A DNA stretch of 64,000 bases from Alphaproteobacteria bacterium (lineage in GTDB: Bacteria > Pseudomonadota > Alphaproteobacteria > Bin95). The notes beneath the pieces were generated by a model. It did not search any database and was not told the origin of the DNA. It worked only from the letters and a program-made list of their open reading frames with translations. The translations under genes and the position numbers were made by a program. Shown here piece by piece: positions 23,137 through 63,788 of the stretch. The DNA lies in contig CBDBGH010000003.1 in assembly GCA_965205265.1 (NCBI GenBank), positions 2,720,001-2,784,000 of the forward strand, given 5' to 3'. The first letter of the stretch is position 1. Each line of letters opens with the position of its first letter.

Positions 23137-23139
23137 GCC

Positions 23140-36848: not shown

Positions 36849-36874
36849 GGAAACCACCAGCGGTGCGGGACAAG

Positions 36875-39868: not shown

Positions 39869-40001
39869 GAGCGCCGAGCGCCGAGCGCCGAGCGCCGAGC
39901 GCCGAGCGCCGAGCGCCGAGCGCCGAGCGCCGAGCGCCGAGCGCCGAGCGCCGAGCGCCGAGCGCCGAGCGCCGAGCGCCGAGCGCCGAGCGCCGAGCGC
40001 C
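39869..40001 (+). repeat. perfect heptamer tandem repeat (GAGCGCC)19
   Basis: 133 bp, 19 exact units, starting 1 bp after TATAAT (39862-39867). Confidence 0.97.
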
Positions 40002-43932: not shown

Positions 43933-44538
43933 AGAACTGGGACCCTCTCGGCGTGGCTCAGGCGTCCGGGGTGGTTAGTGCACAGGGTGCCGCAAGGGCT
44001 CCACTACAATGTGAAGGACTGGTCGCTCGTCGTTTATCCTGACGGGACTTCGACTTCGCTGGACTCTGGTGTCTGGGCGTCCGTTGTGCATGGCACCCGG
44101 ACCGCCTCCACGAGCATGCCGCAGACGGGAATGGCGACCTATGCTGGCAGAGCGTCGGCCTATGTCTTCGAACCCAGCCCGGGAGAGGGGCGCGCCTCGT
44201 CCAACTATGCTGAAGGCTACAGCGGCTCGCTGACGTTGTCGGCGGACTTCGCGGCGGGCAGCGTCTCCGGCCGGATTTCCGACCTCGAGCATAGCCCGAC
44301 ATACTTCAACAGCGGCACCTACAGTGCGGCCGCTGGCGAGTTCACGATCTCCAACGGAGCCATCCAGGGGAACGCCCTGTCCGGCACCTTGTCAGGTCTA
44401 GGCTACAGCGGCACCGTCTCGGGCGCCTTCTACGGGCCGGCTGTCGACGAGGCCGCCGGCGTGATGCAGGCGGCGGGACCGGAAGGCAAGCTGCTTCACG
44501 GCTGGTTCGGCGGCGCCCGCCAGTAGCAACGCCCGCAG

Positions 44539-47133: not shown

Positions 47134-50100
47134 TCAGAACCGCAGCAGCAGGTCGAGCCGGAGCGCGTGCTCCGGCGTTGCCGCCGCGCGCTCGCGGCGC
47201 TCGCCCGCAAGTTCCAGGCGCAAGTCCGCGCGCGATGCGTCGAACCGGGTCCCGATCTTGAGACGCCCGCTGTCGCCCCCGGCAAGGCCCGCTTCCGCGA
47301 ACGGCGTCAGCACGCCCGCCGCCGCCAGGCCGAACCCGTAGCCGAGCCGCGCATCCACAGCGCCGCTGTTGCCGGACGCCGACGGGTTCGGCATCTCATC
47401 GCTCCACAGCGCCCGCGCGCCGCCCGCATCCGCGCCCCAGCGCGGGCTGAGCGCGAAGAACAGGCCGCGCCCGTCCGCCCCCGGACCGGCCCGCGCGGTC
47501 AGGCTCACGCCCTTCTCTTCCGCACCCTCCTCGCTGTGCGCCGTGAGCCAGCGCCCGCGCAGCTCCACCGCGATCTCCGGCGCAACCCAACGCAGCCCGC
47601 CGGCAAGCTCGACGCCGCTGCCCTCGAGGCCATCGCCGCCGTCCTGCCGCATCGCCGCCTCCAGGAACGGCTCGAACGCGGCATCGCCTTCCAGAGCGAA
47701 GCGCCGCGAGGCCTCCATGCCGGCACGCAGCCGCCAGCTGTCGGCGGACAGCCCGTGAATGGCGTCCGGGCCCTCTTCGATCTCGACCCGCGTGATGCTC
47801 GCATCCGCCCGTACCGCCAGCGCGACGCCGGCGAGATCGGGAAGCGCCCGCCTGGCCCCCAACGACGCCATGCGCATCGTGAGGCCGCCGGTCTCCGTCG
47901 CCCCGTCCTCCGGCTTGTGGCGCGCCTCGCCCTCGCCCGCGCCCACCACGCCGCGCAACTCAAGCCCGTCGCCCAGCGTCCAGCGCCCGTAGGGGTAGGC
48001 CGCCGTCAGCGATGTCTCCAGCCGGCCCCGGCCCGACGGGTCGTCGCCGGCAAAGGCGTAATCCGCCTCGCCCTCGCCGTGCGAGACCGCAAGCCCCGCC
48101 ACCCAGGGCCCGGCCCGTGCGTCAATCCCGAGCCAGCCCGTGCGCAACGCCCCGTCGTAGCTGAGCCCCGCCTCGCCGCGGCCCGCGAACGTCCCGAGAT
48201 CGCCCCGGCCCCACACGGCCCATAGCGGCGTCGTCGGGCTGGAACCGCTGCCCTCCGACGCGCCCAGATGCAGCGAGAAGGCGCTCGCGCCGAACAGCCG
48301 GCCGGCTTCCATCGTCCGGCTCCCTGCCGCCGCGCAGCCGGGGAGGCCGCCATAGCCGCCGCCGAACCGTTCCGCCGCGCAGGGCCGCAACCCGTTGTTC
48401 TCCGCGGTAGCCGTCGCGGCGCCGCCCTCCAGCGGCAGCCACTCGCCCGCCAGAGACAGGCCGCTCGCGCCGATGTCGCCGAACCTGGCGCCGATATTGT
48501 CCAGCGCGCCCGCCGTCGCGCGCCGCGCCACTGCCGCAAGCGCCTGCTCCACCGCAGCCTGAACCCGCGCCCGGCGCGGGTCCTCCGCCACGATTATGGC
48601 GAACGCGAGCTCAGCCGCGTCCCCGTCCTCGTCGGTCGCCCTGTAGGTGTAGGTCGTCGCCGCCTGGGTCGTCGTGGGTGTGCCCGTCAGCCTGCGCGTC
48701 AAGGGGTCGAACGACAGTCCCGCCGGCAGCGTCCCCAGCAGATCGTAGGTCAGCGTGCCGTCGCCGCCACTCGCCGCCGGAAGCAACAAATCCGCCATCG
48801 TCCGGTCCTGCGTCCAGGTCCGGTCCGGGATCGATGCATCGGCGGCAAAGCTCGGCGCCAGGTCCGTCACTGTCGGCCTCGAACTCGAGCCCGGCGGCGA
48901 ATTGGTCCTCGCGCGGCGTGTGCTCCGGGCCAGCCTGGGGGCGGGGTTGCCCGGACCGAGCGCGGTGACGGTAATGTCGTACTCGGTATTCGCCTCGAGG
49001 CCCGTGAATATGTGCGAAGTGGACGTGATGTCGTCTGACCCGGACAGGGTCGAGTTACTGACCTTCACGCTCCGGACCGCGTAACGCGTGGCGCCGTCCA
49101 CCGTGTCCCAAGTCGCCCGAAGCCGGTCGGTGGCGCCGTCCACCGCGGCCACCGTCAGGTTCGGGACTGCCGCCAGCGCCTCCTCCACCTCGATGGTGAA
49201 GGTCAGGGTCGCTCTGTCGCTGTCGGCGTCCGCAACCCTGTACGCGTAGGTCGTCGGGCCCTGCAGCGCCGTCGGCGTGCCGGACAGCGTCCGCGTCTCC
49301 TCGTCGAAGCTCAGCCCATCCGGCAGGAACAAGTTCCCGGGAGGGCCCAGAACCGAGTAATGCAGCGTCCCGTTGCCACCCGTCGCCGCCGGCAGAACCA
49401 GTGGCTCGATCTGCACGTCCTTCGTGAAGGACCGGTTCGCGATCGACGTGCCGGGCCGGAATGACGGCATCAGATCCTCCGCCACCACCGTGATCGAGAA
49501 CGTCAGCGATGCCGTGCGGTTCTTACGGTCCGTCGCCGTGTACGTGTAGGTCGTCTTGCCCTGCAGCGCCGTCGGCGTCCCGGTCAGAGCGCCGGGGTCC
49601 GGTCCGGCCGTTGACGCTCTGTTGGCTTCGAATGTCAGGCCCGCCGGCGGGGACGGACGCAGGGCGTAGGTCACCACGTCCCCGCTTCGCGCCCGCGGAA
49701 ACTTCAGCAACTCGATGTCAAGGCCCAAGGAGTAGATCTGGTCGGCGATCGACGCATCGGATGCAAAGCTCGGCGCGGCGTTGCCGTCGTCGTCCGTCAC
49801 CGTGACCCGCACGGAGGGCCCCCTGTTCACGTCGCCAAAGCCGGCGACCGCGTGGTCCACCTGCGCCCCGCGAGCCCTTTCGTTCACGAGGTTGTCGTTC
49901 ACTCCGGTCACGGTCACCGACTGAGGCATGTGCCAGTTCGCGGCCGTGAACCGAAGCGGCGTCGTGTCCACGCGCGCGTTCCCGGCTTGATCGGTGTGGA
50001 TGCTTGGCGTTACCGTCACCGTGCCCGTCGGCCGTCGGCCCAGAACCACCGTATAGCTCGCCTCGTTCTCCTTCGCTGACGTCGCCGGATCGTCAGCCTC

Positions 50101-50649
50101 CGCGACGACCAGATCCCGCGGCGTTACCGTCACGGCAGGGCCGTCATCGTCGAGCATTACCACTCGCACGACGTACTGCGAGCCCGGGCGGTAGCCTGCT
50201 CCGGACCTGACGATGAACTGCAGCCAGCCGTTCGGCTCATGGCTGTCGTCGCCGACAGTCCGGACGCGGATCGTCTTTTCGCTCTCTCCCCGATAGAAGG
50301 TGACGGTCCGTCTGCCGGTGTCCATCGGTTCGGCAATGTCGCTCCACTGGCTCTCGCCCACCGAGACGTTCACGGTCACGCCGCCCTGCGGCGCCGGGCT
50401 CGACAGCGTCACCGTGAAGGTCGCGTCCGTCCCCTCGAGTACCGGGCCTTCCCCTGCGACGCTGGCGCTCGGCACTGTCTGCGCGTGGGCCGGAAGCGAC
50501 ACGAGCGCGCCAAATGCAAACAGGAAGGCAAGGCGGCGGAAGTCACGGGACAACGCCAACGGAGCCCGGCGGGGCGCCCGCACCGTGCAAGGCACAAGCA
50601 CGCCCGGCGCTCCGTTCCGCGCCGGATTGTTCTCGGGATCGTTCGACAT
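47134..50649 (-). CDS. autotransporter-like adhesin (Calx-beta, three Ig/cadherin-like repeats, FN3, C-terminal beta-barrel)
   Basis: Signal LPAHA-Q; EGTDATFTVTLS; three PxGLxF..L.GTPT..TTYxY repeats; FTGLEANTEY; terminal LLLRF; start codon uncertain. Confidence 0.82.
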   Translation of the reverse strand: MSNDPENNPARNGAPGVLVPCTVRAPRRAPLALSRDFRRLAFLFAFGALVSLPAHAQTVPSASVAGEGPVLEGTDATFTVTLSSPAPQGGVTVNVSVGESQWSDIAEPMDTGRRTVTFYRGESEKTIRVRTVGDDSHEPNGWLQFIVRSGAGYRPGSQYVVRVVMLDDDGPAVTVTPRDLVVAEADDPATSAKENEASYTVVLGRRPTGTVTVTPSIHTDQAGNARVDTTPLRFTAANWHMPQSVTVTGVNDNLVNERARGAQVDHAVAGFGDVNRGPSVRVTVTDDDGNAAPSFASDASIADQIYSLGLDIELLKFPRARSGDVVTYALRPSPPAGLTFEANRASTAGPDPGALTGTPTALQGKTTYTYTATDRKNRTASLTFSITVVAEDLMPSFRPGTSIANRSFTKDVQIEPLVLPAATGGNGTLHYSVLGPPGNLFLPDGLSFDEETRTLSGTPTALQGPTTYAYRVADADSDRATLTFTIEVEEALAAVPNLTVAAVDGATDRLRATWDTVDGATRYAVRSVKVSNSTLSGSDDITSTSHIFTGLEANTEYDITVTALGPGNPAPRLARSTRRARTNSPPGSSSRPTVTDLAPSFAADASIPDRTWTQDRTMADLLLPAASGGDGTLTYDLLGTLPAGLSFDPLTRRLTGTPTTTQAATTYTYRATDEDGDAAELAFAIIVAEDPRRARVQAAVEQALAAVARRATAGALDNIGARFGDIGASGLSLAGEWLPLEGGAATATAENNGLRPCAAERFGGGYGGLPGCAAAGSRTMEAGRLFGASAFSLHLGASEGSGSSPTTPLWAVWGRGDLGTFAGRGEAGLSYDGALRTGWLGIDARAGPWVAGLAVSHGEGEADYAFAGDDPSGRGRLETSLTAAYPYGRWTLGDGLELRGVVGAGEGEARHKPEDGATETGGLTMRMASLGARRALPDLAGVALAVRADASITRVEIEEGPDAIHGLSADSWRLRAGMEASRRFALEGDAAFEPFLEAAMRQDGGDGLEGSGVELAGGLRWVAPEIAVELRGRWLTAHSEEGAEEKGVSLTARAGPGADGRGLFFALSPRWGADAGGARALWSDEMPNPSASGNSGAVDARLGYGFGLAAAGVLTPFAEAGLAGGDSGRLKIGTRFDASRADLRLELAGERRERAAATPEHALRLDLLLRF

Positions 50650-51159
50650 ACGCGCGCGCCTCATGGCAGGGGATCGCTCCAGCATCCTGTTTGAAATTGA
50701 GCCCGCGACCGATCCGGTCCGATGGCATGCGCCAGTCATGCAAACCGCTGCAGGTAAAGAAGTTGTGCTGCCTCGCCGACCCGCGCCAGGCGCGGGGCGA
50801 AGTGGGCACCGGCATGGCTCCGCTCACGCCAAGTGGACGAATGCTCCTACCAGGACGCGTGGAGCCCCGGACCGGAATCCGGCGAAGTTGGGAAGGAAGA
50901 AGCAGGACCGTCGCGTGGCGGGTGGTGCGAACCGGTTAGGGCTGGCTCAAAGGAGCGGTCCCGGTGTGCGGACAGAGAGGCCGCGGAAGACAAGGAACAG
51001 TACCGCAGCGCCCTCATGGATATTCACCCTTCAGCCTACACAGCGCCGCACGCGCTGCTGTCAACCTCTGGTTGTCCGACAAGATAGACCTCTCGCTGTC
51101 ACGACCGCGTCCGGAAACTGCCCCAATATCCGAAGAGGCCCCACCCCGAAAGAAAAAAG

Positions 51160-51830
51160 TGAATAACCCTTCGGCATAGGCCGCCTGTCGCATTTCTCCG
51201 GGATCGGGGAGGATGCGCGCTCGGGGTGGCGCGCCGTAAGTGCCCATCGAGGATAAGTGGGCACTATGCGGATGTCGGACGCAGAGCGGACGGGTTCGGG
51301 GGTCGATGGCCTGGGGCGCCGCCGTTGGTGTCGGTGGAGCAAAGCGCAGAAGCGCCGGATCGTTGCGGAGAGTTGTCAGCCCGGGATTCCGGTTTCGGTC
51401 GTGGCGCGGCGGCATGACGTGATCGCGAACCCGGTTTTCAGCTGACGTCGCCAGTATCGGGACCCGGCGCGCGTAGTGGGCGGCTTCGTCCCGGTAGTTG
51501 TCTCTTCGACGAAAGGGGCGAAGTCGGCGAAGCTGTTGCCGGCGCCGAGGGATATCGAACCGACTGCCTCCGGACGGATCGGGATTGCCCTGGCGGATGG
51601 CTCGCGCGCAACGGGCGACCGGGATGTGGATGCGGTGGCGCTGTCGCGGGTGCTTGGGGTTCTGGGGTGGCGATGATCCCGGTTCCGAGCGGGGCGCGGG
51701 TGTGGCTTGCGACCGGCGTGACGGACATGCGGCGCGGGATGAACACCCTGGCGCTGCAAGTCCAGCGGGGTCTCGGGCGGGACCCGCATGCGGGCAATCT
51801 CTCCATCTTCCGTGGACGCAAAGGAGATGG
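51160..51830 (+). mobile_element. degenerate IS66 (tnpA with internal stop, 5' part of tnpB)
   Basis: WSKAQKRRIVAES..VSVVARRH; MIPVPSGARVWLATGVTDMRRG; boundaries approximate. Confidence 0.75.
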
Positions 51831-51895
51831 GCCGTTGAACACGAAAGCCCTGTGGGGGGGTCTGGGTCAGGGCGCGCGATGCAGCGGGGATCGTC

Positions 51896-52090
51896 GTGGA
51901 TGCACGGCTGTACGATCTGCGACATGCGCACGCATCGCACGCGGTCATGAACGGCGAGAGCCTGCATATCGCGGGACGCCTGCTTGGGCATCGTCGCGCG
52001 TCCACGACCAACCACTGCGTCCATCTCGACGATGCGACCCTGAGCGAAGCCTCCGAACGGGCGGCGATGGCGATTCAGGAGAAATTTGGC
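51896..52090 (+). pseudogene. C-terminal remnant of a tyrosine integrase
   Basis: YDLRHAHASHAVMNG..RLLGH..TTNHC; catalytic Tyr lost; similar to 23140-24405 (HDLRHTMSSHAVMNG). Confidence 0.8.
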
Positions 52091-52484
52091 GGGAGTGTTG
52101 AAGACGAAAGCTTCGATGTCGGCAAAACCCGCGGCGAGCCGATGAACGCTCTGTGCAGCCAGCACTGGCGCGTGCCCTCGTATCCGCTCCGCCATCTGGC
52201 CCAGCACCGACCAGCCTCCGAAGCCGGTCAGCTGAGCGTCAGTGAATCCCATCTGGACTTTGGGGCGGCCGAGGAAATACCTTAGCTCATTGTAAGTCTG
52301 CCTTTACGCCCCGGCTAGGCGCTGGGCGGAGCAACATCCGGTGACCCCCCAGCGGGGCGAGCCGGTTCGGGACAAATGGCTCAGTCTGAGCAGGAGAAGC
52401 AAGCTGTGGCCGCACGACGTTTTGATCTTGCAAGCCCGGTCTGGCCGGTGAAATTGAGCGCCCCAGCGCCTCTAGGACGGCGCC

Positions 52485-53906
52485 GTGGCTAATAAGCGGG
52501 TCATCGTTATCGGAGGGGGGGCCGCAGGACTGAGCGCGGCCTACACGGCAAAGAAGCGCGGCCTCGCCCCCCTTTTGTTGGAGGCTACCGACCAGATTGG
52601 CGGGCGGATGGGCGGCGAGAGGATCGACGGCTTTTCGACGGACAAGGCCGCGGATTTTTTCCCGATTTCCTACGACACAACGTTCCGGCTATGCGAAGAG
52701 CTGGGTGTGCCGCTGACTAACCTTAGTATGGACATTGGCTGGTATAGGCACGGACGCTGGGTTGTCACGACGCCGATTACCTCTCTGGGGTCCTTGTTCA
52801 GGAACATAGGGCCGTTCCGGACCATCGAATTTCTATCGCTCCGAGGGATATGGCCGACTTTCAAGTTGGTCAGAAACCTCAAGGCCGATGCAAAGCACCT
52901 GAACTACGCGAGTACGCACCGCATCGCGAACATGGATACAGACGAGACCTATAGGGAGTACCTCGATAGGCTCGGCGTGCCCGAACCGGTGCGGGTGACG
53001 TTGGAGGGATTTCTGGGTTTAACCATGGGAAATCCCGAAGAATTTGGGGCGACCTGGATTCGGGCGTTCCTGGCCGAAGTTCTGCTGAAGCCGGAAAAGC
53101 TCTACACGCCGGTGGGTGGGTGCAGCCATCTGTCGGAAGTGCTGGGGGAGAAGCTGGGCAACGCTATTCGCGTCTCGACGCCGGTGAAGCGAGTGGTCAT
53201 TGAGAACGGAAGGGCGGTGGGCGTCGTTACCGACGATGGCTTCATGGAGGCCGACGCGGTCATTTCCAGTGTACCGGCGACGAAGGCGCTGGAGATCATG
53301 CCGGACCTGCCGGAGAGGATTCGCGACGCGCTAGGCACGGTGCAGTATTCGTTCGGCATCCGTGTAGTACTGGGCCTCAACCATCGGCCCCTTCCTCCTG
53401 GGTGGAGCGTGGCACTATATCCCGAAGACGACACGCCGTCGCTGTTGGACCGCACCGTCAACCTGCCTGAATGCGCGCCGCCCGGCAAGGCTCTGCTCGA
53501 CCTTTGGGTTGGGGAGAGCCGCGCCAAAGACTTGCTGGAATTCGACGACGAGCAGATTGCCCGTACGCTGCTGGCGGATGCTCATGGCAAGGCGCCTCCA
53601 GGCTCGATGCTTCCGCAGTACGAGGACGTGCTCTTTGCGCGTGTGTACCGCTGGCACGAGGCGGTTTGCAAGGGGCTGCCCGGCATGTTCACTGCGGTGA
53701 AGCAAATGCGGCTGGATTTGGCGGAAGATCTGCAGAACCTCCGCATCGTGGGCGATTTCATGCGGTCGCCGATTGTAAACGGCGCCATCACGAGCGGCGT
53801 CGAAACGGCGAACGAAGTTGCTGATTTGCTGGAGACCCCCCAACCGCCTAACAGGCTGTGGAAGAACGGCCTGAGTGGATTATTTTGTGGACGCCTGTGG
53901 GCGTGA
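52485..53906 (+). CDS. flavin-dependent oxidoreductase (amine oxidase / protoporphyrinogen oxidase-like)
   Basis: IGGGAAGLSAA..LLEA..IGGR, GDF..NGAITSG; the last ~18 codons read into an IS end. Confidence 0.82.
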   Translation: MANKRVIVIGGGAAGLSAAYTAKKRGLAPLLLEATDQIGGRMGGERIDGFSTDKAADFFPISYDTTFRLCEELGVPLTNLSMDIGWYRHGRWVVTTPITSLGSLFRNIGPFRTIEFLSLRGIWPTFKLVRNLKADAKHLNYASTHRIANMDTDETYREYLDRLGVPEPVRVTLEGFLGLTMGNPEEFGATWIRAFLAEVLLKPEKLYTPVGGCSHLSEVLGEKLGNAIRVSTPVKRVVIENGRAVGVVTDDGFMEADAVISSVPATKALEIMPDLPERIRDALGTVQYSFGIRVVLGLNHRPLPPGWSVALYPEDDTPSLLDRTVNLPECAPPGKALLDLWVGESRAKDLLEFDDEQIARTLLADAHGKAPPGSMLPQYEDVLFARVYRWHEAVCKGLPGMFTAVKQMRLDLAEDLQNLRIVGDFMRSPIVNGAITSGVETANEVADLLETPQPPNRLWKNGLSGLFCGRLWA

Positions 53907-54420
53907 TCGTATCGGTCGGATGGATTTGTTCGGAGTGAACGAGGCGGGGAATTTCAGCGCAGCAGTACGGCCCTGCGGACGGGAAGCCTTGCCGGCGCCG
54001 GCGTGACGGAGCGCCCAACGGCGGCCCTACGCCGGGTCCCGGCGGTCATGCGGCAGCCTTCAAGAGCTTCGGCAGTCGGATCAGGTCGTAGGCGGCCAGC
54101 GCCGGGGTGAACTGCCAGTCAACCCGGGCCAGGCCGCGATGTCGGGTCTTCGAGAGGCACGCCCCGTCTTCAACCAGCCGAAGACCTCCTCGATCCGTTT
54201 GCGGTGAACCTGGCTCGCTCGATATCCCTCGCTCGCCGCCATCTCTTCGCCGATATTCGAGCGCCGGCCCGCGGTGTTGCGCGCCGCATGTGCCTCGGCG
54301 CCGAAGGCTTTGCAGGTCCTGACGAACTCCGCCGTGTCATAGGCCTTGTCCGCTCCCACCGACACAGCCCGGTCGGGCTCCTCCCGGCGCCCTTCGGCAT
54401 GACCTCGCCGGCCAGGCATT
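53852..54420 (-). mobile_element. IS5-family remnant, frameshifted
   Basis: GADKAYD, RKRIEEVFGWLK, RHRGLARVDWQF..LIRLPKLL; end CTAA-CAGGCTGTGGAAGAA; inner boundary approximate. Confidence 0.75.
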
Positions 54421-54847
54421 TCGCTTGGCCGCAGCCCGACATCCGCGCGGCCTCGGTCAGAACCGCGAACGTCGCAGCTCCGGCTATTGCTGTGCAAGCC
54501 CCAGCAACATGGCGTCCGGCGTATAGCTCGCAACGCCTTAATGGTCGCCAACGCACTTGCCCATGTCGCACATCGCCGACGCGGCCGACGCCTGCGGCCC
54601 GATACGCTGGCCGTCTTCCGGCGTGCAGAGCTGCGGCTTCTCCATGCCGAGCCGCTCCGCGACCTTCGCGCCGAAAGCGAAGGCGGTCCCGAATTCGACC
54701 TCAACATCGGAAGTCCGCAGAAAAAGTAATCGGCCGTCCTACCGAACGAAGATGAACTTATGGACCTCATATTAATTCGGTATTTGCCGGCGCAGTTGGC
54801 CGGCTCCATCCTGCCGCGAGTGCAATAGCTGCGAAAGGAGCAGACAG

Positions 54848-55342
54848 ATGCACGTCAGACGAATCGACGTACGGAGCCTGGCGGCCGCGGTCGCGGCGCT
54901 GGGCATCGTGGCGGCGCTGGCCGGTCCCGCGCTGGCTGGCGGGGACAGCGGTCCGCCCGCCCGTACGGGCAAGATCCACGACGACTGCGAACTGTTCAGC
55001 CTCACGGTGACGACCAGCAGCGTCACGATGAAGGCGGCCTGCAGGGTCAGCGATGAAAACACCAGCATGAAGTGGTCGACCGTCAACCTCAGCAACAATA
55101 TCAAGGTCGACACGAAGGAGACGGGCCATCTGAGGTGGGGCGGCAGCAACTTCCAGGACCACTGCAGCGGCATCGCCGTCGAGCAGCAGGACAGCGGCGT
55201 GAAGCTGAAGGCCACATGCAACTACTACTGCAATTTCGACAGAGGCCGGTATTTCGGCTGCCCCTCGGGGAGCACGAATACGTCGCTGCAGTTGGCCGAC
55301 TACTACGAGGCGAGTTCCAGCGGCACCCTGGCGGTCAAATGA
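54848..55342 (+). CDS. secreted CVNH (cyanovirin-N-like) protein, copy 1
   Basis: Sec signal ending PALA; GKIHDDC..KAAC..VNL..GHLRW..NFQDHC..LKATC..TSLQL..GTL; 6 Cys. Confidence 0.72.
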   Translation: MHVRRIDVRSLAAAVAALGIVAALAGPALAGGDSGPPARTGKIHDDCELFSLTVTTSSVTMKAACRVSDENTSMKWSTVNLSNNIKVDTKETGHLRWGGSNFQDHCSGIAVEQQDSGVKLKATCNYYCNFDRGRYFGCPSGSTNTSLQLADYYEASSSGTLAVK

Positions 55343-56155
55343 GCCGGCGGCGGCTTGGGACCGGCAGGCTGGACAGGCGGCGTTCGCCGGAGAGGCGCCG
55401 AGGACAGGCTTAATCGGCGCGACAGGAATTCGGTATTGGCCTGCCGCAACCTGCCCGCCCCAGGCTTCGGGGCGTGCAACGACTGCGAAGAAAGGAGCAG
55501 ACAGATGCGCACAAGACGAATCGGCATACGGAGCCTGGCGGTCGCGGTCGCGGCGCTGGGCGTCGCGGCGGTCCTGGCCGGCCCCGCATTGGCGGGGGGA
55601 GGCGGACCCTCCGCCCGGACCGGGAAGATCCACCAGGATTGCGACCAGTTCAGCACGCAGGCGTCGGGCGACAAGCTCCTGCTCAAGGCAAACTGCAGGA
55701 CCAGCGACGACAACGAGAACAAGAAGCAGACGAGCGTGAACCTCGCGGCCAACATCGGCAACGCCGACGGCTATTTGACCTGGAACGGAAACAGCTTCCA
55801 CAAGAGCTGCAACAAAATCGCCGCCGAGAAGCATAACGACGGCGTGAAGCTGAAGGCTTCATGCAGCTATCAGTATTGCAGGAAACCGAACCAGTTCCAG
55901 GACTTCGGCTGCCAGACCAAGAGACGGGATACGTCGCTGGAGCTGAACTCCTACTACGAGGTGAACTCGTCGGGCGACCTGACGGTCAAATAGGCCGGCG
56001 GCGGCTCGGGACCGGCAGGATCGGCAGGCGGCCTTCGCCGGAGAGGCGCCGAGGACAGGCTTAATCGGCGCGACAGGAACTCGGTATTGGCCTGCCGCAA
56101 CCTGCCGGCCCCAGGCTTCGGGGCGTGCAACGACTGCGAAGAAAGGGGCAGACAG
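55343..56155 (+). repeat. type-A leader repeats (55343-55504 and 55994-56155, 162 bp each)
   Basis: Near-identical spacers ending GCGAAGAAAGG(A/G)GCAGACAG-ATG. Confidence 0.9.
55505..55993 (+). CDS. secreted CVNH protein, copy 2
   Basis: SVNLAANIGNADGYLTWNGNSFHKSC aligns with cyanovirin-N SIDLNSVIENVDGSLKWQPSNFIETC; 6 Cys. Confidence 0.82.
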   Translation: MRTRRIGIRSLAVAVAALGVAAVLAGPALAGGGGPSARTGKIHQDCDQFSTQASGDKLLLKANCRTSDDNENKKQTSVNLAANIGNADGYLTWNGNSFHKSCNKIAAEKHNDGVKLKASCSYQYCRKPNQFQDFGCQTKRRDTSLELNSYYEVNSSGDLTVK

Positions 56156-56617
56156 ATGCGCGTAATGCGATTCAATGAACGGAGCCTGTTTGGCGCTATT
56201 GCCGCGCTGGGCGTCGCGGCAATGCTGGCCGGCCCTGCGCTGGCGGGGGGGTCGGGCCCCGACCCCCGGACTGGAAACATCCACGACGACTGCAACCAGT
56301 TCAGCCTGCAGGAGGACGGCGACAAGCTCCTGCTCAAGGCGAAGTGCAGGACGAGCGACAGCAACACCGACAAGAAGGAGACGAGCATCGACCTCGCCGC
56401 CAGTATCGGCAACGACAATGGCTACCTGAAATGGAACCAGAGCCTCTTCCACAAGAGCTGCGACACCCTCAGCCTCTCGCCCCACACCCAGGGAGTACTG
56501 CTGTGGGCCAGCTGCACCTACCTGCTGCAGCAGTACCACAAGCAGAAACGCAGAACGAAGATGGAGCTGGGTGACCGCTATCGGACCGACTCGTCGGGGG
56601 ATCTGGCGATCCGGTAA
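56156..56617 (+). CDS. secreted CVNH protein, copy 3
   Basis: TSIDLAASIGNDNGYLKW..FHKSC; 4 Cys. Confidence 0.82.
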   Translation: MRVMRFNERSLFGAIAALGVAAMLAGPALAGGSGPDPRTGNIHDDCNQFSLQEDGDKLLLKAKCRTSDSNTDKKETSIDLAASIGNDNGYLKWNQSLFHKSCDTLSLSPHTQGVLLWASCTYLLQQYHKQKRRTKMELGDRYRTDSSGDLAIR

Positions 56618-57436
56618 TGGCGCTTCGGGCCGGGCTCCGAAGACGGGCTTATGGGAGCGATAGGAATTCGGTATTTGCGTGGCGCAACCGCCGGTTCCAC
56701 GCTTCGGGAAGTGCGGCAACCGCGAAGAAAGGAGCGGACAGATGCGCGTAATACGATTCCATGCACGGAGCTTGGTCGGCGCTATCGCCGCGCTGGGCAT
56801 TGCGGCGGCGCTGGCCGGTCCCGCCCTAGCCGGCGGGGGCGGCGGTCCTCCCGCACGGACGGGGGCAATCCACGATGACTGCGAGGGGGTAAGCCTTCAG
56901 GAATCGGGCGGTAAGCTGGAACTTCGGGCCAACTGCAGAACCAGCGACGAAAATGAGGACAAGGCGCAGACAAGCATCGACCTTTCCGACATCAAGGCTG
57001 TCCCAAATCATCGAGTGGGCATCCTTCCGAACAGCGAGCGAATCAACCCCTTCCCCGGACTGGGATGGAGGGAATCGGGCTGGAGCCGCTTTTACGACGC
57101 CTGCCATAGCACCGAACTCCAAAAGCGTTCCGGCGGTGTCTGGGGAATAAAGACGCGGTGCAGAATTCAGATATGCGCTGCGGATTGGGGCGGCCGTATG
57201 ACCAACTGCAGCGATTCCGAAACCTGGGGGTATTTCGATCTGCACAGCAAGTACTGGGTGAACTCGGCAGGCAAGCTGGCGATCAGGTAAGCCGCTCTGG
57301 ACTGGGTCTCCGTTACCGGGTGGACCGGGGTTCGAAGACGGACTTATGGGAGCGATAGGAATTCGGTATTTGCGTGGCGCAACCGCCGGTTCCACGCTTC
57401 GGGAAGTGCAACAACCGCGAAGAAAGGAGCGGACAG
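56618..57436 (+). repeat. type-B leader repeats (within 56618-56741 and 57291-57436)
   Basis: About 100 bp shared, CGAAGACG..CTTATGGGAGCGATAGGAATTCGGTATTTGCG...GAAAGGAGCGGACAG-ATG. Confidence 0.9.
56742..57290 (+). CDS. secreted CVNH-like protein, copy 4 (divergent, with insertion)
   Basis: LELRANC..TSIDL, then a longer segment replacing IGNxDG; 6 Cys; ends VNSAGKLAIR. Confidence 0.7.
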   Translation: MRVIRFHARSLVGAIAALGIAAALAGPALAGGGGGPPARTGAIHDDCEGVSLQESGGKLELRANCRTSDENEDKAQTSIDLSDIKAVPNHRVGILPNSERINPFPGLGWRESGWSRFYDACHSTELQKRSGGVWGIKTRCRIQICAADWGGRMTNCSDSETWGYFDLHSKYWVNSAGKLAIR

Positions 57437-57901
57437 ATGCGCGTAATGCGATTCAATGCACGCAGCCTGGTCGGGGCTATCGCCGCGCTGGGCATTGCGG
57501 CGATGCTGGCCGGCCCCGCTGTGGCCGGAGGCGGATCGTCCGGCCGGACGGGGCATATCAACAAGGATTGCAGCGGGTTCAGCCTGCAGACCGACGGCGA
57601 CAAGTGCCTGTTCAAGGCGAGCTGCAGGACGAACGACGACAACGAGGACAAGAAGGCGACCAGCATCGACATCGCGGCCAATATCGGCAACTACGGGGGC
57701 AACCTGACGTGGAACTACAGCCGCTTTCACAAGAGTTGCGGCCAGATCAGCCTCGATGACCTGAGTGTGAAGGCATACTGTCCGTATTCGGTCTGTCCCC
57801 GGAATACGGGAGGCGAATGCCAAACGAGGTGGAAGTGGTCATGGTTCAACCTGACTACGAAATACAAGGTGAACTCGTCGGGCGATCTGGCCTTGAAGTA
57901 A
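57437..57901 (+). CDS. secreted CVNH protein, copy 5
   Basis: TSIDIAANIGNYGGNLTWNYSRFHKSC; 7 Cys; ends VNSSGDLALK. Confidence 0.8.
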   Translation: MRVMRFNARSLVGAIAALGIAAMLAGPAVAGGGSSGRTGHINKDCSGFSLQTDGDKCLFKASCRTNDDNEDKKATSIDIAANIGNYGGNLTWNYSRFHKSCGQISLDDLSVKAYCPYSVCPRNTGGECQTRWKWSWFNLTTKYKVNSSGDLALK

Positions 57902-57943
57902 GCCGCCCGACGGCGGTGTCCCGTTCGGAAGGCGCGCGATAGC

Positions 57944-59665
57944 ATGGAACGCATCCCGGGGGACGGATCCCCGGCAGCCCGAACCTGCCATACGGAGCTT
58001 CCGGCGTCGGCTCCGCTCTCCGATAGCCCGGAGAGTGGAGCCCTGCCGCGAAGCGCCTTCAGGCTGCGCATTGCCGGCGGATTCGCCTCGCTCCGGGGCT
58101 GGCGCCGTTGGTGCGCGGCGACGCTGTCGGGCCTGTTGGCCGCAACCGCGCAACCGCCGCTGCTGCTGCTCCCTGCGCTCTTCGCCGGCTTCGCCGGGCT
58201 GCTCTGGCTGCTGGCCGGCGCGTCCGGGGCCCGGCAGCGGTGGTTCGACGGGTGGCTGTTCGGGATCGGGTATTTCGGCGCCGGGCTTTACTGGATTGCG
58301 GCCGCATCCGAGAACGACGCCAACCGGCTCCCGTGGCTGGTTCCGGCCATCACGGTCGGCCTGGTGCTGGTGCTTGCGCTGTTTCCCGCCGCCGCCGCGC
58401 TGGCGGCGGGCCGGCGGCCGCTGCGCCCGGCCGGGATCCTGGCGTTCGCGGGCGCCTTCACCCTGTTCGAATGGGTGCGCGGCTGGATCTTATCGGGATT
58501 TGCGTGGAATCCGGTCGGCAATATCTGGATCGAGGTCCTCCCGGTGCTGCAGGCGGCGTCGTGGTTCGGCGTTTACGGCCTGACCTTCGCGACCGTCTAT
58601 GCGGCCGCAGGCCTGGCCGCGCTCGCGTTGCGGGAACGCGGGGCAGGGGCGGCCGCGCTGTCGGGCGTCCTGCTTCTGGCCGGGTTAGCGGCGGCGGGCG
58701 CCGTCCGGCTGTCCGGAGCCCCGGCGGACTCTGGCGGCGGGGCGGCGCTGCGCATCGTGCAGCCGCATGTCGCCTCCCGCGGCAATTGGACTTCGAGCAG
58801 GCAGGCCGAGATCTTCCGGCGGTTGACCCGGATGACCGGACAAGACATGCCGGCGGGCGCCGTCGTCATCTGGCCGGAGGTGGCGATGCCCTATGTGGTG
58901 CAGATCGACGCGGAGAGCGACCCCCGGCTTGCCGGGCTGGCGCCGGAGGGCGGATACCTGATCACCGGCGCGGTCCGGTACCGGTATGAGAACGACCGGC
59001 AGGCGGAGGCCTGGAACGGCCTCATCGCGGTCGATGACGAAGCCCGCATCGTCGCCCAGTACCAGAAGCACCACCTTGTCCCGCTCGGCGAGTATGTTCC
59101 GTTTCCCGAACTGTTCGGCCTGCGGCGGGTCACCTGGGGCCGGCTGAACTTCTCGCCCGGCCCGGGGCTTGCCCTGCTCGACCTTCCGGGCCTGGTGCCG
59201 TTCGCGCCCCAGATCTGCTACGAGATCATCTTCCCGGACGCGGCGGTGGACCGGAGCGCTCCCCGTCCGGCCTGGCTGCTCTCGCTGACCAATGACGGGT
59301 GGTTCGGCGAGACCGCCGGCCCCTATCAGCATTTCGCATCGGCGCGGATGCGGGCGGTGGAGGAAGGCGCGCCGCTGGTGCGCGCGGCCAATACCGGCAT
59401 CTCCGCGGTCACGGACGCATACGGGCGCGTGACGCACCGCCTGGAACCGGGAGCGCGCGGTGTCATCGATGCGCGGCTGCCGCCCCCGTCTCCGTCCCCG
59501 ACGCTCTTTTCGCGGTACGGAAATGCCGCGGCGGCGATTCCTGTGCTCCTCGCCGGCCTGTTCCTGGCGGCGCGGAGGCTGCCGGCGATCTTCCGATACA
59601 GGCGGGCCATCGGATCGGGCAGAAAGGGGAACGGCGCGGACCCGGCCCTCGCCCGGGACAGGTGA
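57944..59665 (+). CDS. lnt: apolipoprotein N-acyltransferase
   Basis: WPE, YQKHHLVPLGEY, ICYE catalytic triad, TNDGWFG, RAANTGIS; true start may be further downstream. Confidence 0.93.
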   Translation: MERIPGDGSPAARTCHTELPASAPLSDSPESGALPRSAFRLRIAGGFASLRGWRRWCAATLSGLLAATAQPPLLLLPALFAGFAGLLWLLAGASGARQRWFDGWLFGIGYFGAGLYWIAAASENDANRLPWLVPAITVGLVLVLALFPAAAALAAGRRPLRPAGILAFAGAFTLFEWVRGWILSGFAWNPVGNIWIEVLPVLQAASWFGVYGLTFATVYAAAGLAALALRERGAGAAALSGVLLLAGLAAAGAVRLSGAPADSGGGAALRIVQPHVASRGNWTSSRQAEIFRRLTRMTGQDMPAGAVVIWPEVAMPYVVQIDAESDPRLAGLAPEGGYLITGAVRYRYENDRQAEAWNGLIAVDDEARIVAQYQKHHLVPLGEYVPFPELFGLRRVTWGRLNFSPGPGLALLDLPGLVPFAPQICYEIIFPDAAVDRSAPRPAWLLSLTNDGWFGETAGPYQHFASARMRAVEEGAPLVRAANTGISAVTDAYGRVTHRLEPGARGVIDARLPPPSPSPTLFSRYGNAAAAIPVLLAGLFLAARRLPAIFRYRRAIGSGRKGNGADPALARDR

Positions 59666-59764
59666 GAGTCCCGGGTCCGATTGGCTATCCAACTCCGACG
59701 GGCTATTTTGAACGCCGAATGGGCACTTCAGCGAATGCCGTCCGAGGACCGGCCCGGCAATGTC

Positions 59765-61261
59765 ATGAGGAAGGGAACGATCCTGGGTTTCGCCGCCGTG
59801 TGCCTCGTCGTTCTGGTGCAGGACAGGGAGGATGCGCTGGCCGCCGGGCAGCCGGAGACGGTCCGGCTCACTCTGGCCGAGGCGGTGGAACGGGCGTTGC
59901 GCCGCAACCCGAAGCTCGTGGAAGCCAGGCTCGACCGGACTCTAGAGAAGTTCGACCTCGAACAGGCCGAAGCCATGTTTGCGCCGGAGGTGAGTTTCGG
60001 CACAGCAGCTACCGGTTACAAGCTCGACCGGGGCGCGGACACAAGGAGCTACGAGTTCCGTGCAGGGCCCAGCGTGACTATGAAGCTGCCCACGGGCGGA
60101 GAGATCGGCGTCAAACCGGCCTGGACCGCGACGCTCGACCGTACCGGCGAACCCGGCCAAGTTTACGATGCGACGATGGAGTTGTCCTTCTCGCATCCGC
60201 TGCTGAAGGGCGCGGGGCTGGACGCCGGCCTGGCGCCGATCAGGCTCGCGCGCATAGCGGAGGAGAGCAATGTCCTGAAACTCAGGGCCGACGCGATGGA
60301 TGTCGTCACCTCGGTGATCGAGGCCTACCGCGCGGCGATCCGGGCGGAGAAACAGGTCGAGATCGACGAGGGCGCGCTGCAGCGCGCAAAGGAAACGCTT
60401 GAGGTCAACCGGCTGCTCGTCGACACCGGCAGGATGGCGCGGGCGGATATCGTTCAGACCGAGGCCGACATCGCGAGGCGGGAACTGGACGTGGTCCGCA
60501 GCCGGGACCGCATGGACGACGCCGGGAGGAAGCTGAACGTCCTTCTCGATCTGGACAGCGGCATCCGGCTCGTGCCCGTCGATCCGCTGACCGTCGAACC
60601 GCACCGGCCCGACCTGGAGGCCATCCGGGCGCTGGGCCGGGAACGCAACCCCGGCTATCTCGGGGCGCGGCTGGCCCTGCGGGCCGCCGAGATCCGGCTG
60701 GAGCAGGCGGAGGACAACTCGCTCTGGGACCTGTCGTTCACGGCCAGGGCCGAGTTCGGGGGACAAGGCGGTTCGTTCGGTTCGGGGCTGGGAGACCTGG
60801 CCGGCGATAGCAGGAACGAGGGCGCCTATTCCCTCGGCCTCGCCCTGAGCGTACCGCTGGGCGACACGGCGGCGAAGGCCGCCAAACGGGCGCAACTGGC
60901 TGCGCGGCTGGACCGCCGGAAGGCGGAGCGCGCGCTGGCGACGGCCGCGCGCGAGTTGGACACCGGCCTGCTCAACGCGGTGCGCGCGGTGGAGCTGGGG
61001 CTGACGCAAATGGAGCTGGCGCGCCAGGCGCTGGCGCTCGCCGAGGAAAAACTCCGGATCGAACAGGGGAAGCTCCGGCTGGGCCTGACGTCGAATTACC
61101 GGCTGGCCTCCTTCCAGACCGATCTCGTCAATGCGCAGGTCAGCGAGCTCGATGCAAAGGTCGGGTATCTGAACGCGGTTGCGGCGCTCGACAGGGCGGC
61201 GGGCACGGTCCTCGATACCTGGAATATCGATATCCGCAGCCTGTCCGAGGACCGGAAATGA
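59765..61261 (+). CDS. TolC-family outer-membrane factor
   Basis: Signal peptide, LTLAEAVERALRRNP, two OEP-like coiled-coil repeats. Confidence 0.88.
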   Translation: MRKGTILGFAAVCLVVLVQDREDALAAGQPETVRLTLAEAVERALRRNPKLVEARLDRTLEKFDLEQAEAMFAPEVSFGTAATGYKLDRGADTRSYEFRAGPSVTMKLPTGGEIGVKPAWTATLDRTGEPGQVYDATMELSFSHPLLKGAGLDAGLAPIRLARIAEESNVLKLRADAMDVVTSVIEAYRAAIRAEKQVEIDEGALQRAKETLEVNRLLVDTGRMARADIVQTEADIARRELDVVRSRDRMDDAGRKLNVLLDLDSGIRLVPVDPLTVEPHRPDLEAIRALGRERNPGYLGARLALRAAEIRLEQAEDNSLWDLSFTARAEFGGQGGSFGSGLGDLAGDSRNEGAYSLGLALSVPLGDTAAKAAKRAQLAARLDRRKAERALATAARELDTGLLNAVRAVELGLTQMELARQALALAEEKLRIEQGKLRLGLTSNYRLASFQTDLVNAQVSELDAKVGYLNAVAALDRAAGTVLDTWNIDIRSLSEDRK

Positions 61262-63060
61262 GCGCGCCGGTTCACGAGGCCATTCTGGATGACATGGACG
61301 ACGGCGTCGTGTCGATCGCGAAGGACGGCAGCATCATATTCGTCAACGCGGCCGCCGCGCGCATTCTCGGACTGGAGGGCGCCCGGGTCGAGGGCCGCAA
61401 GTTCGGCGAGGTCTTTGCGGCGCTGGAAGGCCTGGACCCGTTCACCGAAACCGTTCTCGACGCGGTCGGCGAGGAGCAGGATATCGGCCGGAAGGCCATC
61501 GAGATCCACGCCGGGGGCGAACGGCGCCTGCTGAAGATCGGCACGTCCTGGCTGCATTCCGGCAAGGGGGCGGACAGCCGGCGCGCGGGCATCGTTGCGG
61601 TCTTCTCGGATATCACGGAAATCCAGGAGTTGCGCGAGACGGAAATCAGGCTGGGCGAGAGGATCAGGGAGCAGTACGGCGAGCTCCAGGACGCCTACCG
61701 CAAGATCGAGGAGAGCAACAGCGAACTGTCGTCGACGCTTCGGCGCGTGCAGGCGATAAAGGTCGTCGCCGCCGCGGTGGCCGCGATTATTCTCGGCGCC
61801 GGATACTACGCCTGGCGAACGACCCAGGGCCCCATTGCCGCCGAGGCGGCGGCGCCGGCGGGAGAAGGCGGGCAACCCGCCACCCTGGTCGTCCAGCCCC
61901 GGCAATTGCGCTCGACCGTGTCCTTCCCCGGTCGGCTTGGACCGCGGCGGCAAACGAATGTCGTCAGCCCGGTCCCCGGCGTTGTGAGCGCGCTGCATTT
62001 CCAGTACGGCGACAAGGTCGAGAAAGGGCAGGTTCTGCTTGAACTCGACATTTCGAAGATCGTTCGGGAACACCGGTCGGTGCGGGCGAAATACATCGAG
62101 ACCGTCAAGCGCGCCAAGGAACTTGAGGACTGGGAGAGCGGCCCCGAAATGCTGGCCGCGCATCGCGCCCTGGACCGGTCCCGGCGCACCCTCGACAGGC
62201 AGAAGCGGAAGCTGGAGCAGACCGCCTTTCTGCTCGAAAGCGGCGTGATCCCCGCATCGGAACACGAAGCGGCCCTGGAGCAGTACGAAAGCCTCAAGGT
62301 CGAGCACCGGACGACGGAGGAGAAGCTCGAGGCGGTGCGGGAACGGGGCGGCGCTGCGGCCAGGGAGGTGTCGAAGCTGGAATTGCAGACGGTGGAGGAG
62401 CAGCTCCGCGAGTTGGAGGCTGCGATGGAGCTGTCTGCTGTGCGGGCGCCGATATCGGGCATCGTCGCGCAACCGGCTCAGGACCGCCTGGGCTTCCCGG
62501 GACAATCGGATGGGGGCAGGCTTCCCCTGAAGGGAACGCAGGTATCGCGCGGGCAACTTCTGCTGACCGTTGCGGATGTCGAATCCCTCTCCGTCAAGGG
62601 GTCCGTCGATGAAGTGGAGGTGACGAAGCTGCGTGTGGGGCAACCGGTCGCCGTCACCGGGGATGCGTTCGCCGGCGTTGCGCTCTCCGGCGCCCTCAGC
62701 AGCGTCTCTTCGCAGGCCGCCAATGCCGTGTCGCATGGCAACCAGCCCGCGCTTTTCAGCTTTGTCGCCGCGCTCGACGAATTGGGCCCGGGGGTCCGGC
62801 AACGGTTGCGGCTGGGCATGACGGTCGATGTCGAGGTCGTAATCGAGGACATGCCCGAAGCATTGCTCGTCCCGCTTCGGGCGGTGCAGCGGCGAGGCGA
62901 TTCGCTGTCCGTCCGGGTCCTGGACCGGGCCACCGGCGAAATACGGGCCGTGGAGGTCGAAACCGGGACGACGACCCGCGACTCGGTGCATGTCAGGCGC
63001 GGGCTCTCCGCCGGCGATACGATCGTTCTCGACGACAGGGACAGCGGGCCCCGCGGATGA
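61258..63060 (+). CDS. PAS domain fused to a MacA/HlyD-like periplasmic adaptor
   Basis: ILDDMDDGVVSI..G.IIFVNAAAARILG...VFSDITE (PAS), coiled coil, TM, GDKVEKGQVL, VRAPISGIV, LRLGMT, GLSAGD. Confidence 0.85.
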   Translation: MSAPVHEAILDDMDDGVVSIAKDGSIIFVNAAAARILGLEGARVEGRKFGEVFAALEGLDPFTETVLDAVGEEQDIGRKAIEIHAGGERRLLKIGTSWLHSGKGADSRRAGIVAVFSDITEIQELRETEIRLGERIREQYGELQDAYRKIEESNSELSSTLRRVQAIKVVAAAVAAIILGAGYYAWRTTQGPIAAEAAAPAGEGGQPATLVVQPRQLRSTVSFPGRLGPRRQTNVVSPVPGVVSALHFQYGDKVEKGQVLLELDISKIVREHRSVRAKYIETVKRAKELEDWESGPEMLAAHRALDRSRRTLDRQKRKLEQTAFLLESGVIPASEHEAALEQYESLKVEHRTTEEKLEAVRERGGAAAREVSKLELQTVEEQLRELEAAMELSAVRAPISGIVAQPAQDRLGFPGQSDGGRLPLKGTQVSRGQLLLTVADVESLSVKGSVDEVEVTKLRVGQPVAVTGDAFAGVALSGALSSVSSQAANAVSHGNQPALFSFVAALDELGPGVRQRLRLGMTVDVEVVIEDMPEALLVPLRAVQRRGDSLSVRVLDRATGEIRAVEVETGTTTRDSVHVRRGLSAGDTIVLDDRDSGPRG

Positions 63061-63788
63061 TCCGGCTCGAAGGCATCCGCAAGAGCTATCGGGTCGGCCC
63101 GGTGATGGTGGACGTCCTCAACGGCGTCTCGCTCGAAGTGCGGGCAGGCGATCTGCTGTCCGTCATGGGTCCTTCGGGATGCGGCAAGTCAACGCTCATG
63201 AACATCATCGGGCTTCTGGACCGGCCGACGAGCGGCTCCTATTTCCTGAACGGGCGCGATGCGGCCGGCATGGGCGACGACGAAGTCTCGGCGGTGCGGA
63301 ACGCCAATATCGGGTTCGTGTTCCAGTCCTTCCACCTGCTGCCCCGGCTGACGGCGGCGCAAAATGCGGGGCTTCCGCTCATATACAGGGGCGAGCCGGA
63401 GGACCGGATCAGGCGGCAGGCCGTCGAAGCGCTGGACCGGGTGGGCCTGGCGGACCGGGCCGGGCATCGGCCCAACCAGCTTTCCGGCGGCCAGCAGCAA
63501 CGCGTCGCGGTGGCGCGCGCCCTCATCGGGAGCCCGTCCGTCATCCTCGCCGACGAGCCGACGGGCGCTCTCGATCCCGATACCGGCCGGGAAATCATGG
63601 ACATGTTCGAACGGCTGAGCTCCGAGCAGCAGATGGCCGTGGTGATCGTCACCCACAGCCCGGAGGTTTCCGAGCGGTGCCGCCGGCGCGCCCGCGTCGA
63701 GGACGGACTCGTGCGGGAAGAGCGAGCCGACGGGGCTGCGGCGCAGCAGGACGGGCGCAGCGGCGGCGGTCGTGCTTTCCAGGGCTAA
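63057..63788 (+). CDS. MacB/LolD-type ABC ATP-binding protein
   Basis: GPSGCGKST, IGFVFQSFHL, LSGGQQQRVAVARAL, ADEPTGALD. Confidence 0.93.
   Translation: MIRLEGIRKSYRVGPVMVDVLNGVSLEVRAGDLLSVMGPSGCGKSTLMNIIGLLDRPTSGSYFLNGRDAAGMGDDEVSAVRNANIGFVFQSFHLLPRLTAAQNAGLPLIYRGEPEDRIRRQAVEALDRVGLADRAGHRPNQLSGGQQQRVAVARALIGSPSVILADEPTGALDPDTGREIMDMFERLSSEQQMAVVIVTHSPEVSERCRRRARVEDGLVREERADGAAAQQDGRSGGGRAFQG

Follow-up and report, generated by a model that had tools for sequence, protein, structure and literature searches.

A tandem array of five cyanovirin-N homology genes with putative Sec-type signals in an alphaproteobacterial genome

Based on profile searches, predicted structures, export-signal features and the relations among the copies, we here describe five genes of the cyanovirin-N homology (CVNH) family that lie in tandem and in the same orientation at 54848-57901 of a 64,000-nucleotide (nt) stretch of an alphaproteobacterial genome, in the following termed the window (assembly GCA_965205265.1, contig CBDBGH010000003.1, positions 2,720,001 to 2,784,000 of the forward strand). 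We consider it fairly probable that they encode five Sec-exported, disulfide-stabilised CVNH glycan binders that act at or beyond the cell envelope with divergent specificities, and we propose that they operate in the following manner. Each paralog would be made with a cleavable Sec signal peptide and exported to the periplasm, and two intra-repeat disulfides typical of the family (C8-C22 and C58-C73 in cyanovirin-N) probably stabilise each protein. Four of the paralogs probably have a third disulfide as well, which holds together an elongated beta-hairpin that is inserted behind the fourth cysteine. The paralogs would then bind carbohydrate, in the cell envelope or outside the cell, and, with binding surfaces that appear to have diverged, the five proteins and at least two paralogs encoded elsewhere in the genome would between them bind a range of different glycans. 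By analogy to microvirin, the likeliest targets would be polysaccharides on the surface of the producer itself or belonging to microbes nearby, and the duplications are presumably old, with the copies maintained.

All five genes are on the plus strand, as determined from open reading frames (ORFs) and a check of the start codons. Paralog 1 (54848-55342; 164 residues, six cysteines), with a putative signal peptide at approximately residues 1-30, is followed by paralog 2 (55505-55993; 162 residues, six cysteines), paralog 3 (56156-56617; 153 residues), which has the four core cysteines only and the shortest insertion, paralog 4 (56742-57290; 182 residues, six cysteines), with two insertions, one in the first-repeat loop and one after the fourth cysteine, and paralog 5 (57437-57901; 154 residues, seven cysteines). 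The ORF list and the start check agree exactly with the initial annotation, made from the sequence alone, which had described five co-oriented genes for proteins of 153-182 residues. The true start of paralog 2 is the ATG at 55505, preceded by a Shine-Dalgarno sequence and located within a longer listed ORF (55355-55993). Indeed, each of the five ATGs is found at the usual distance behind a Shine-Dalgarno sequence of the form GAAAGGAGC(A/G)GACAG, with GAAAGGGGC as the variant in paralog 3. A profile of the five mature parts, searched against the six-frame translation of the window, returns five matches at E<=5e-54 and the next one at E=4.2, hence neither a sixth copy nor a decayed one is present in the window. 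Compared with paralog 1, the other paralogs show 41-53% identity, and 45 columns are invariant. The GC content at third codon positions (0.70-0.88) is near that of neighbouring host genes, and the lower total GC of the five genes, 0.60-0.64 as compared to 0.67 for the whole window, is due to lower GC at codon positions 1 and 2.

The family assignment draws on several searches. The gathering cut-off of the Pfam CVNH model (PF08881; 24.5 bits) is reached by four of the five proteins, with 28.8, 38.8, 46.7 and 35.5 bits for paralogs 1, 2, 3 and 5, respectively, whereas paralog 4 remains below it at 15.7 bits; at E<=0.01 the same model matches 18 of the 24 sequences of the subfamily described below. 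NCBIfam NF052356, 'mannose-binding lectin', is the best NCBIfam match for each of the five, and positions 3-94 of its 103 are covered in paralogs 2, 3 and 5. When a profile of the five paralogs is compared to the sequences of the Protein Data Bank (PDB), 17 of 23 matches at E<=1 are cyanovirin-N or CVNH entries (E 1.6e-15 to 0.0031); six more match weakly (E>=0.42), and in five of these it is the signal-peptide part of the query that aligns. With a profile of 13 mature sequences, all 16 PDB matches at E<=0.001 are CVNH entries. As read from the profile alignments, the four invariant cysteines align with C8, C22, C58 and C73 of cyanovirin-N, and the internal repeat of the family is recovered, i.e. 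one profile segment (positions 21-85) aligns to both cyanovirin-N halves, with IGNxxGxLxW in one half of the paralogs and VNSSGxLxV in the other. The first of these motifs had initially been assigned to the whole array; it holds for paralogs 2, 3 and 5, but not for paralogs 1 and 4, where insertions or substitutions are present.

The CVNH fold consists of two pseudo-symmetric halves, each formed by a triple-stranded sheet and a hairpin. The AlphaFold2 model of mature paralog 3, computed from an alignment of five sequences, has a pLDDT of 78.6 and a pTM of 0.71, and a Foldseek search of the PDB with this model gives 25 matches at E<=0.001, every listed one a CVNH structure, the next match being at E=0.15. 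These include cyanovirin-N variants, Cyt-CVNH (5k79), GzCVNH, CrCVNH, NcCVNH, TbCVNH, microvirin, MoCVNH and the designed LKAMG, and the TM-scores towards monomeric CVNH entries are 0.68-0.76. Paralog 4, modelled from 24 sequences (pLDDT 83.7, pTM 0.73), matches CVNH structures in 13 of 13 cases at E<=0.001, with TM-scores normalised by the target of up to 0.76. The models thus suggest a CVNH fold for the most typical copy, paralog 3, as well as for the least typical one, paralog 4. The fold that was initially assigned is accordingly borne out by Pfam for four of the five copies, by the PDB sequence search, and by structure prediction for paralogs 3 and 4, the two models matching nothing but CVNH structures at E<=0.001.

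The N-termini are alike in all five proteins: a net charge of +2 to +4 over residues 1-10 is followed by a hydrophobic segment of 20 residues (mean Kyte-Doolittle value 2.0-2.3), which ends in ALA or AVA, i.e. an AxA motif, and then by a Gly/Pro/Ser-rich linker and an invariant RTG. All five paralogs therefore appear to carry a signal of the Sec/signal peptidase I type, with cleavage and export the expected consequences. Lipoproteins are ruled out by the lack of a lipobox cysteine near the cleavage motif in any paralog. A Tat signal is unlikely, as an RR pair occurs in paralogs 1 and 2 only and is absent from paralogs 3-5; no Tat-signal model is among the matches of the five proteins in the NCBIfam scan at E<=10.

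The similarity of the copies extends upstream of the genes. A conserved region of 100 nt, presumably comprising the promoter and the 5' untranslated region with the Shine-Dalgarno sequence, precedes paralog 1 (54748-54847), paralog 2 (55405-55504), paralog 3 (56056-56155), paralog 4 (56642-56741) and paralog 5 (57337-57436), in each case on the plus strand. Alignment and identity comparison of the five regions yield 64 invariant columns, with 97% identity between paralogs 2 and 3 and likewise between paralogs 4 and 5, and 67-75% between paralog 1 and the other four. Mean pairwise nucleotide identity falls from 0.79 in the 100 nt upstream to 0.75 over the signal-peptide part and 0.59 over the mature one, and the mature coding identity within the two pairs with 97% identical upstream regions is 69% (paralogs 2 and 3) and 57% (paralogs 4 and 5). 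Hence, the 5' modules are probably kept similar by gene conversion or by selection, with the mature domains diverging. As each gene has its own conserved upstream region, each is probably transcribed as a unit of its own, with the control shared among the five.

A candidate for the shared control element is an invariant CTTATG-N17-GTATTT upstream of every paralog, promoter-like as judged by eye and resembling an alphaproteobacterial promoter consensus; we treat it as a lead. A scan of 54000-58500 with the sigma-70 consensus gives no promoter-like site, the three terminator-like sites of this interval are all on the minus strand (4.0 expected), and Rfam detects no family here, the single sub-threshold match (24.9 bits; cut-off 55) being due to chance. 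A leader hairpin masking the Shine-Dalgarno sequence was considered and rejected: RNAalifold pairs GCUCC, GCCCC or GUUCC with the Shine-Dalgarno sequence, but just three of 25 pairs covary, and single-sequence folds are comparable to those of shuffled sequences (z -1.10 to +0.14), the pairing occurring in three of the five.

The paralogs belong to a subfamily with marks of its own. A full HMMER search with the mature profile against 1.84 billion representative proteins gives 102 matches at E<=0.001, 21 at E<=1e-10 and four at E<=1e-30. Essentially the whole profile is matched by 19 of the 102, proteins of 148-182 residues that include two of the window's own, and these 19 have in common a similar signal peptide, the RTG....DC start, CR..D after the second cysteine, and four cysteines; the four core cysteines are invariant in all 24 subfamily sequences. 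The 19 full-length members furthermore share an insertion after the fourth cysteine relative to cyanovirin-N, which usually, as in paralogs 1, 2, 4 and 5, carries an extra cysteine pair. In the model of paralog 4, as read from DSSP, the insertion forms a long hairpin with strands at residues 96-109 and 115-128, and the extra cysteines (mature residues 107 and 118) are placed on its facing strands, an arrangement in keeping with a third disulfide. A precomputed PF08881 label is already attached to the relatives in the protein collection, so automatic annotation would recognise these genes. Among ESM Atlas clusters, the nearest are of the CVNH type: two, with 95 and 328 members, have Pseudomonadota as the commonest phylum, and a third, with 192 members, is from Cyanobacteriota; the scores of 0.83-0.86 are below the 0.9 level, and these clusters serve as a lead.

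Several observations weigh against a reading as exported glycan binders, or against parts of it. The bit scores for NF052356, 32.0, 51.3, 55.9, 16.2 and 44.5 for paralogs 1-5, are all under its curated cut-off of 80. The structural models, available for paralogs 3 and 4, are built on shallow alignments of five and 24 sequences. A Sec signal by itself does not place a Gram-negative protein outside the cell, so that of the initial term 'secreted' the step into the periplasm agrees with the signal features of all five proteins, whereas passage across the outer membrane is presumed. The fold, too, is no guarantee of a lectin role, since the fungal CVNH effector SsCVNH acts by binding a peroxidase of its host plant and, so far as shown, not a glycan (PMC11064801). 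Finally, the subfamily insertion replaces the K74-Q78 strand of the domain-B pocket, the main sugar pocket of cyanovirin-N. According to PMC8091458, this pocket is formed by E41, N42, V43, D44, S52, N53, F54, E56, T57, K74, R76 and Q78, and our alignment reading finds approximately three of these 12 residues identical in paralog 1, three in paralog 2, four in paralog 3, two in paralog 4 and three in paralog 5.

The pocket bears in particular on the alternative that the paralogs are secreted high-mannose lectins that would recognise Man-alpha-1,2-Man of N-glycans, as cyanovirin-N does in vitro, and thereby neutralise glycosylated viruses or aid the colonisation of a eukaryotic host. The nearest solved relatives, i.e. 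cyanovirin-N, Cyt-CVNH and microvirin, are compatible with this, and paralogs 2, 3 and 5 retain the equivalents of N42 and F54 and, with Ser in place of T57, the hydroxyl at that position. Moreover, most hydrogen bonds of cyanovirin-N to the sugar originate from backbone atoms, as stated in PMC8091458; poor pocket conservation therefore lowers the odds of mannose binding without excluding it. On the other side, the identity of two to four of 12 domain-B residues, the remodelling of the pocket by the insertion, and the mannose-binding cut-off of NF052356 that no paralog reaches make such a role unlikely in our view, and nothing found here supports a high-mannose or antiviral activity. From the alignments, the pocket differences would speak against presuming a specificity like that of cyanovirin-N, whereas sugar binding in general is not called into question by them, and we retain the proposal of five exported glycan binders with specificities of their own.

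The history of the copies was addressed with a maximum-likelihood tree of 28 mature sequences, comprising the 24 subfamily members and four more distant matches as outgroup, with no rows dropped. We note that 16 of its 25 inner branches are open, that the bootstrap is not fully settled and that the rest of the subfamily is not placed. Paralog 1 is sister to P0009 (support 100/99), paralog 4 is sister to P0007 (100/100), and paralog 5 is sister to the group of paralog 4 and P0007 (95/96), while paralog 3 groups with P0006 at a support of merely 82/63. P0009 and P0007 are encoded on contigs of 804 and 1081 bp, respectively, neither on the chromosome of the array. As paralogs 1 and 4 are closer to relatives from other sources than to other copies of the array, their lineages predate the split of the organisms, and from these relations the array appears old and maintained, with no sign of recent amplification. 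Two further proteins of the same CVNH subfamily, P0010 (165 residues) and P0017 (166 residues), are encoded outside the window, apparently on the same 5.46-Mb chromosome (5,463,552 bp). Added to the five of the array, they very probably bring the subfamily members of this genome to at least seven. Separately, the subfamily members P0023 and P0114 both derive from a contig of 2,358 bp, which hints that similar CVNH genes are neighbours in a further organism as well. A tblastn search with paralog 2 against 72,556 plasmids gives no match. Scans of genome contigs return 590 stretches for the signal-peptide pattern and one for a CRTSD-type pattern, none of them confirmed, and did not recover even the genome of the array itself.

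These relations also speak to whether the array consists of redundant or decaying copies of a single functional gene that have no roles of their own. Compatible with such a history are the ratios of nonsynonymous to synonymous differences (pN/pS) of 0.59-1.17 among the mature parts, and the score of paralog 4 under the Pfam cut-off. However, pS among the paralogs is 0.33-0.60, as compared to a saturation level of 0.57-0.64 between unrelated host genes, and with synonymous sites near saturation in a GC-rich genome the ratios are unreliable. Furthermore, all five ORFs are intact, with conserved Shine-Dalgarno sequence, signal peptide and four core cysteines, the lineages of paralogs 1 and 4 have been kept for long, as their closer relatives in other sources indicate, and paralog 4 is still confidently predicted as a CVNH protein. 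We therefore regard redundancy as very improbable. The 'diversified repertoire' of the initial annotation fits the combination of conserved parts for export and control with divergent mature parts, and is not taken as evidence of positive selection.

The array forms the right-hand margin of a region with many mobile elements and surface-protein genes. On its right, genes with core-like GC (57944-63788, plus strand) encode Lnt, TolC, a MacA-like adaptor and a MacB/LolD-like ATPase, in this order. Of these, lnt begins only 43 nt beyond paralog 5 and matches TIGR00546 with 286.7 bits (cut-off 132.9), and the adaptor, downstream of TolC, has an N-terminal PAS domain, an unusual fusion. On the left, the array is bounded by the remnant of an IS5-family transposase (54081-54809, minus strand; NF033581 matched over profile positions 191-261 of 285 only, 47.5 bits at a cut-off of 140), which ends 39 nt before paralog 1. 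This remnant on one side, and an IS66 orf2-like remnant with the C-terminus of a tyrosine recombinase (51667-52285) on the other, flank a lone gene of the flavin amine-oxidase family (52485-53906; GC 0.60) immediately to the left of the array.

Core genes are found in the left part of the window, among them rpoN, hpf, ptsN, lptC and those for a SIS/CBS sugar isomerase, a TRAP transporter and hydantoinases. The mobile-element region starts at about 22 kb with two tandem tyrosine integrases and an adjoining protein of 765 residues (22012-24405 and 24919-27216), and holds IS66, IS21 and other transposases. The 765-residue protein contains a Sll1717-family P-loop ATPase domain (274.9 bits; cut-off 75); its N-terminus weakly resembles nucleoside 2-deoxyribosyltransferases, an anti-phage model matches weakly as well, and judging from these matches the gene may be a defence gene. 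The IS66 element matches mostly alphaproteobacterial plasmids, the best match being from a Geminicoccaceae bacterium. For RpoN, the top tblastn matches among plasmids and chromids are from Azospirillum (58%), Methylobacterium and Sinorhizobium, and the two results make an alphaproteobacterial host plausible. Further on, a porin gene is found together with two genes for Slam, the surface lipoprotein assembly modifier, and adjacent or nearby genes for TbpB-like beta-barrel lipoproteins (35592-36857, minus strand; 39867-42074, 43978-44526 and 44539-45849, plus strand), two Slam/TbpB-like pairs that from their sequences would form a system for display of surface lipoproteins in the same island. 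A DDE transposase gene (42174-43829) separates the large TbpB-like gene from the downstream TbpB-like/Slam pair, and a tRNA-Ala of 94 nt (37373-37466, minus strand), which ARAGORN calls within the porin ORF (37289-38392), is probably spurious. An autotransporter of 1201 residues (47134-50739, minus strand), whose passenger contains He_PIG Ig-like and fibronectin type III domains, is a likely adhesin, judging from these domains, a few kb upstream of the array. The GC content of the mobile and surface-protein region is 0.654, as compared to 0.69 on both sides. No att-like direct repeats are evident between the array and the left boundary of the island, where the search gives just chance matches of 12-13 nt.

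Such surroundings would also suit a CVNH scaffold with a role other than glycan binding, namely protein binding, or antagonism by exported proteins similar to bacteriocins or effectors that exit via the adjacent TolC/MacA-like/MacB-like exporter. The peroxidase-binding fungal effector described above provides a precedent (PMC11064801), the array borders the integrases, IS66, IS21, Slam/TbpB-like pairs and autotransporter, the genes directly downstream include, besides Lnt, the components of the possible exit route, and the mature parts have diverged fast. Still, neighbourhood alone is weak evidence, no small immunity-like gene accompanies the paralogs, since the gaps within the array, of 124-162 nt, are taken up by the upstream regions only, and the Pfam and NCBIfam scans show no attached toxin or enzyme domain. 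We hence judge a non-glycan role to be improbable, and favour the proposal of exported glycan binders here as well.

A more far-reaching interpretation, which we put forward as speculative and rather unlikely, is that the array and the at least two dispersed paralogs represent a multigene recognition repertoire of an undescribed alphaproteobacterial CVNH subfamily. Gene conversion would then homogenise the export and regulatory modules, ligand-facing loops including the disulfide-clamped hairpin would diversify, and the resulting lectin panel would discriminate foreign surfaces, such as those of competitors, hosts and glycosylated phage or viral particles. If true, this repertoire would be a bacterial counterpart of the lectin families expanded in eukaryotic innate recognition; if, on the other hand, the paralogs bind only the polysaccharide of their producer, the array would be an ordinary family expansion. 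CVNH lectins have so far been studied almost entirely as antiviral reagents, and a genome from outside the cyanobacteria that has at least seven members, with five in one array that combines conserved control regions and divergent binding surfaces, would offer a tractable system for the native role of the family and the evolution of its specificity. The inserted, probably disulfide-clamped hairpin may in addition offer new glycan specificities of practical use.

With respect to what has been reported previously, the CVNH domain is found mainly in cyanobacteria, filamentous ascomycetes and one fern, as given in PMC11064801, which cites Percudani 2005. No description of a comparable array or of a proteobacterial CVNH protein was retrieved from the literature covered, subscription journals being largely outside it (titles and abstracts); PMC4428218 was discarded as a CVNH paper, 'CVNH' being a piece of an accession prefix there. 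The taxonomic novelty is smaller than initially suggested, as the ESM Atlas lead places Pseudomonadota CVNH proteins in databases already.

The best structural match of both models is Cyt-CVNH (5k79, 'Cyanovirin-N domain protein'), with E 6.4e-07 and TM-scores of 0.74/0.79 for paralog 3, and E 6.1e-05 and a TM-score by target of 0.74 for paralog 4. It is also a strong sequence match (E 6.2e-09) that shares the two-repeat, four-cysteine layout with the paralogs, and its chain start TGQFSKTC aligns with the invariant RTG..DC of the subfamily. However, Cyt-CVNH has 108 residues, is 17-28% identical to the paralogs, and lacks the long insertion after the fourth cysteine as well as the extra cysteine pair. 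Cyanovirin-N of Nostoc ellipsosporum (1iiy, 2ezm, 3ezm) has the fold and repeat architecture in common with the paralogs, including the (I/V)xNxxGxLxW/Y motif in both halves, whereas the second repeat of the paralogs is 20-50 residues longer.

The fungal proteins GzCVNH (2l2f), NcCVNH (2jzl), TbCVNH (2jzk) and MoCVNH-LysM (2l9y) have the fold of the paralogs as well, with TM-scores of 0.70-0.73, and differ in being eukaryotic and, in some cases, fused to LysM domains; SsCVNH is, like the paralogs, small, of the secreted type and equipped with a signal peptide, according to PMC11064801. Microvirin of Microcystis aeruginosa (2y1s, 'Mannan-binding lectin'; E 3.1e-07, TM-score 0.72) is a bacterial lectin with the CVNH fold, encoded by a single gene, and unlike the array proteins it is cyanobacterial and without the insertion of the subfamily. 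It binds the lipopolysaccharide of its producer, and a role in colony formation has been proposed, as described in a review of cyanobacterial glycans (PMC4390846), by which many cyanobacterial lectins have signal peptides, while next to nothing has been learnt about what they do for the cell. Compared with these systems, the array consists of new, expanded and somewhat aberrant members of the known CVNH family, with the repeat architecture of cyanovirin-N and a predicted elongated hairpin after the fourth cysteine.

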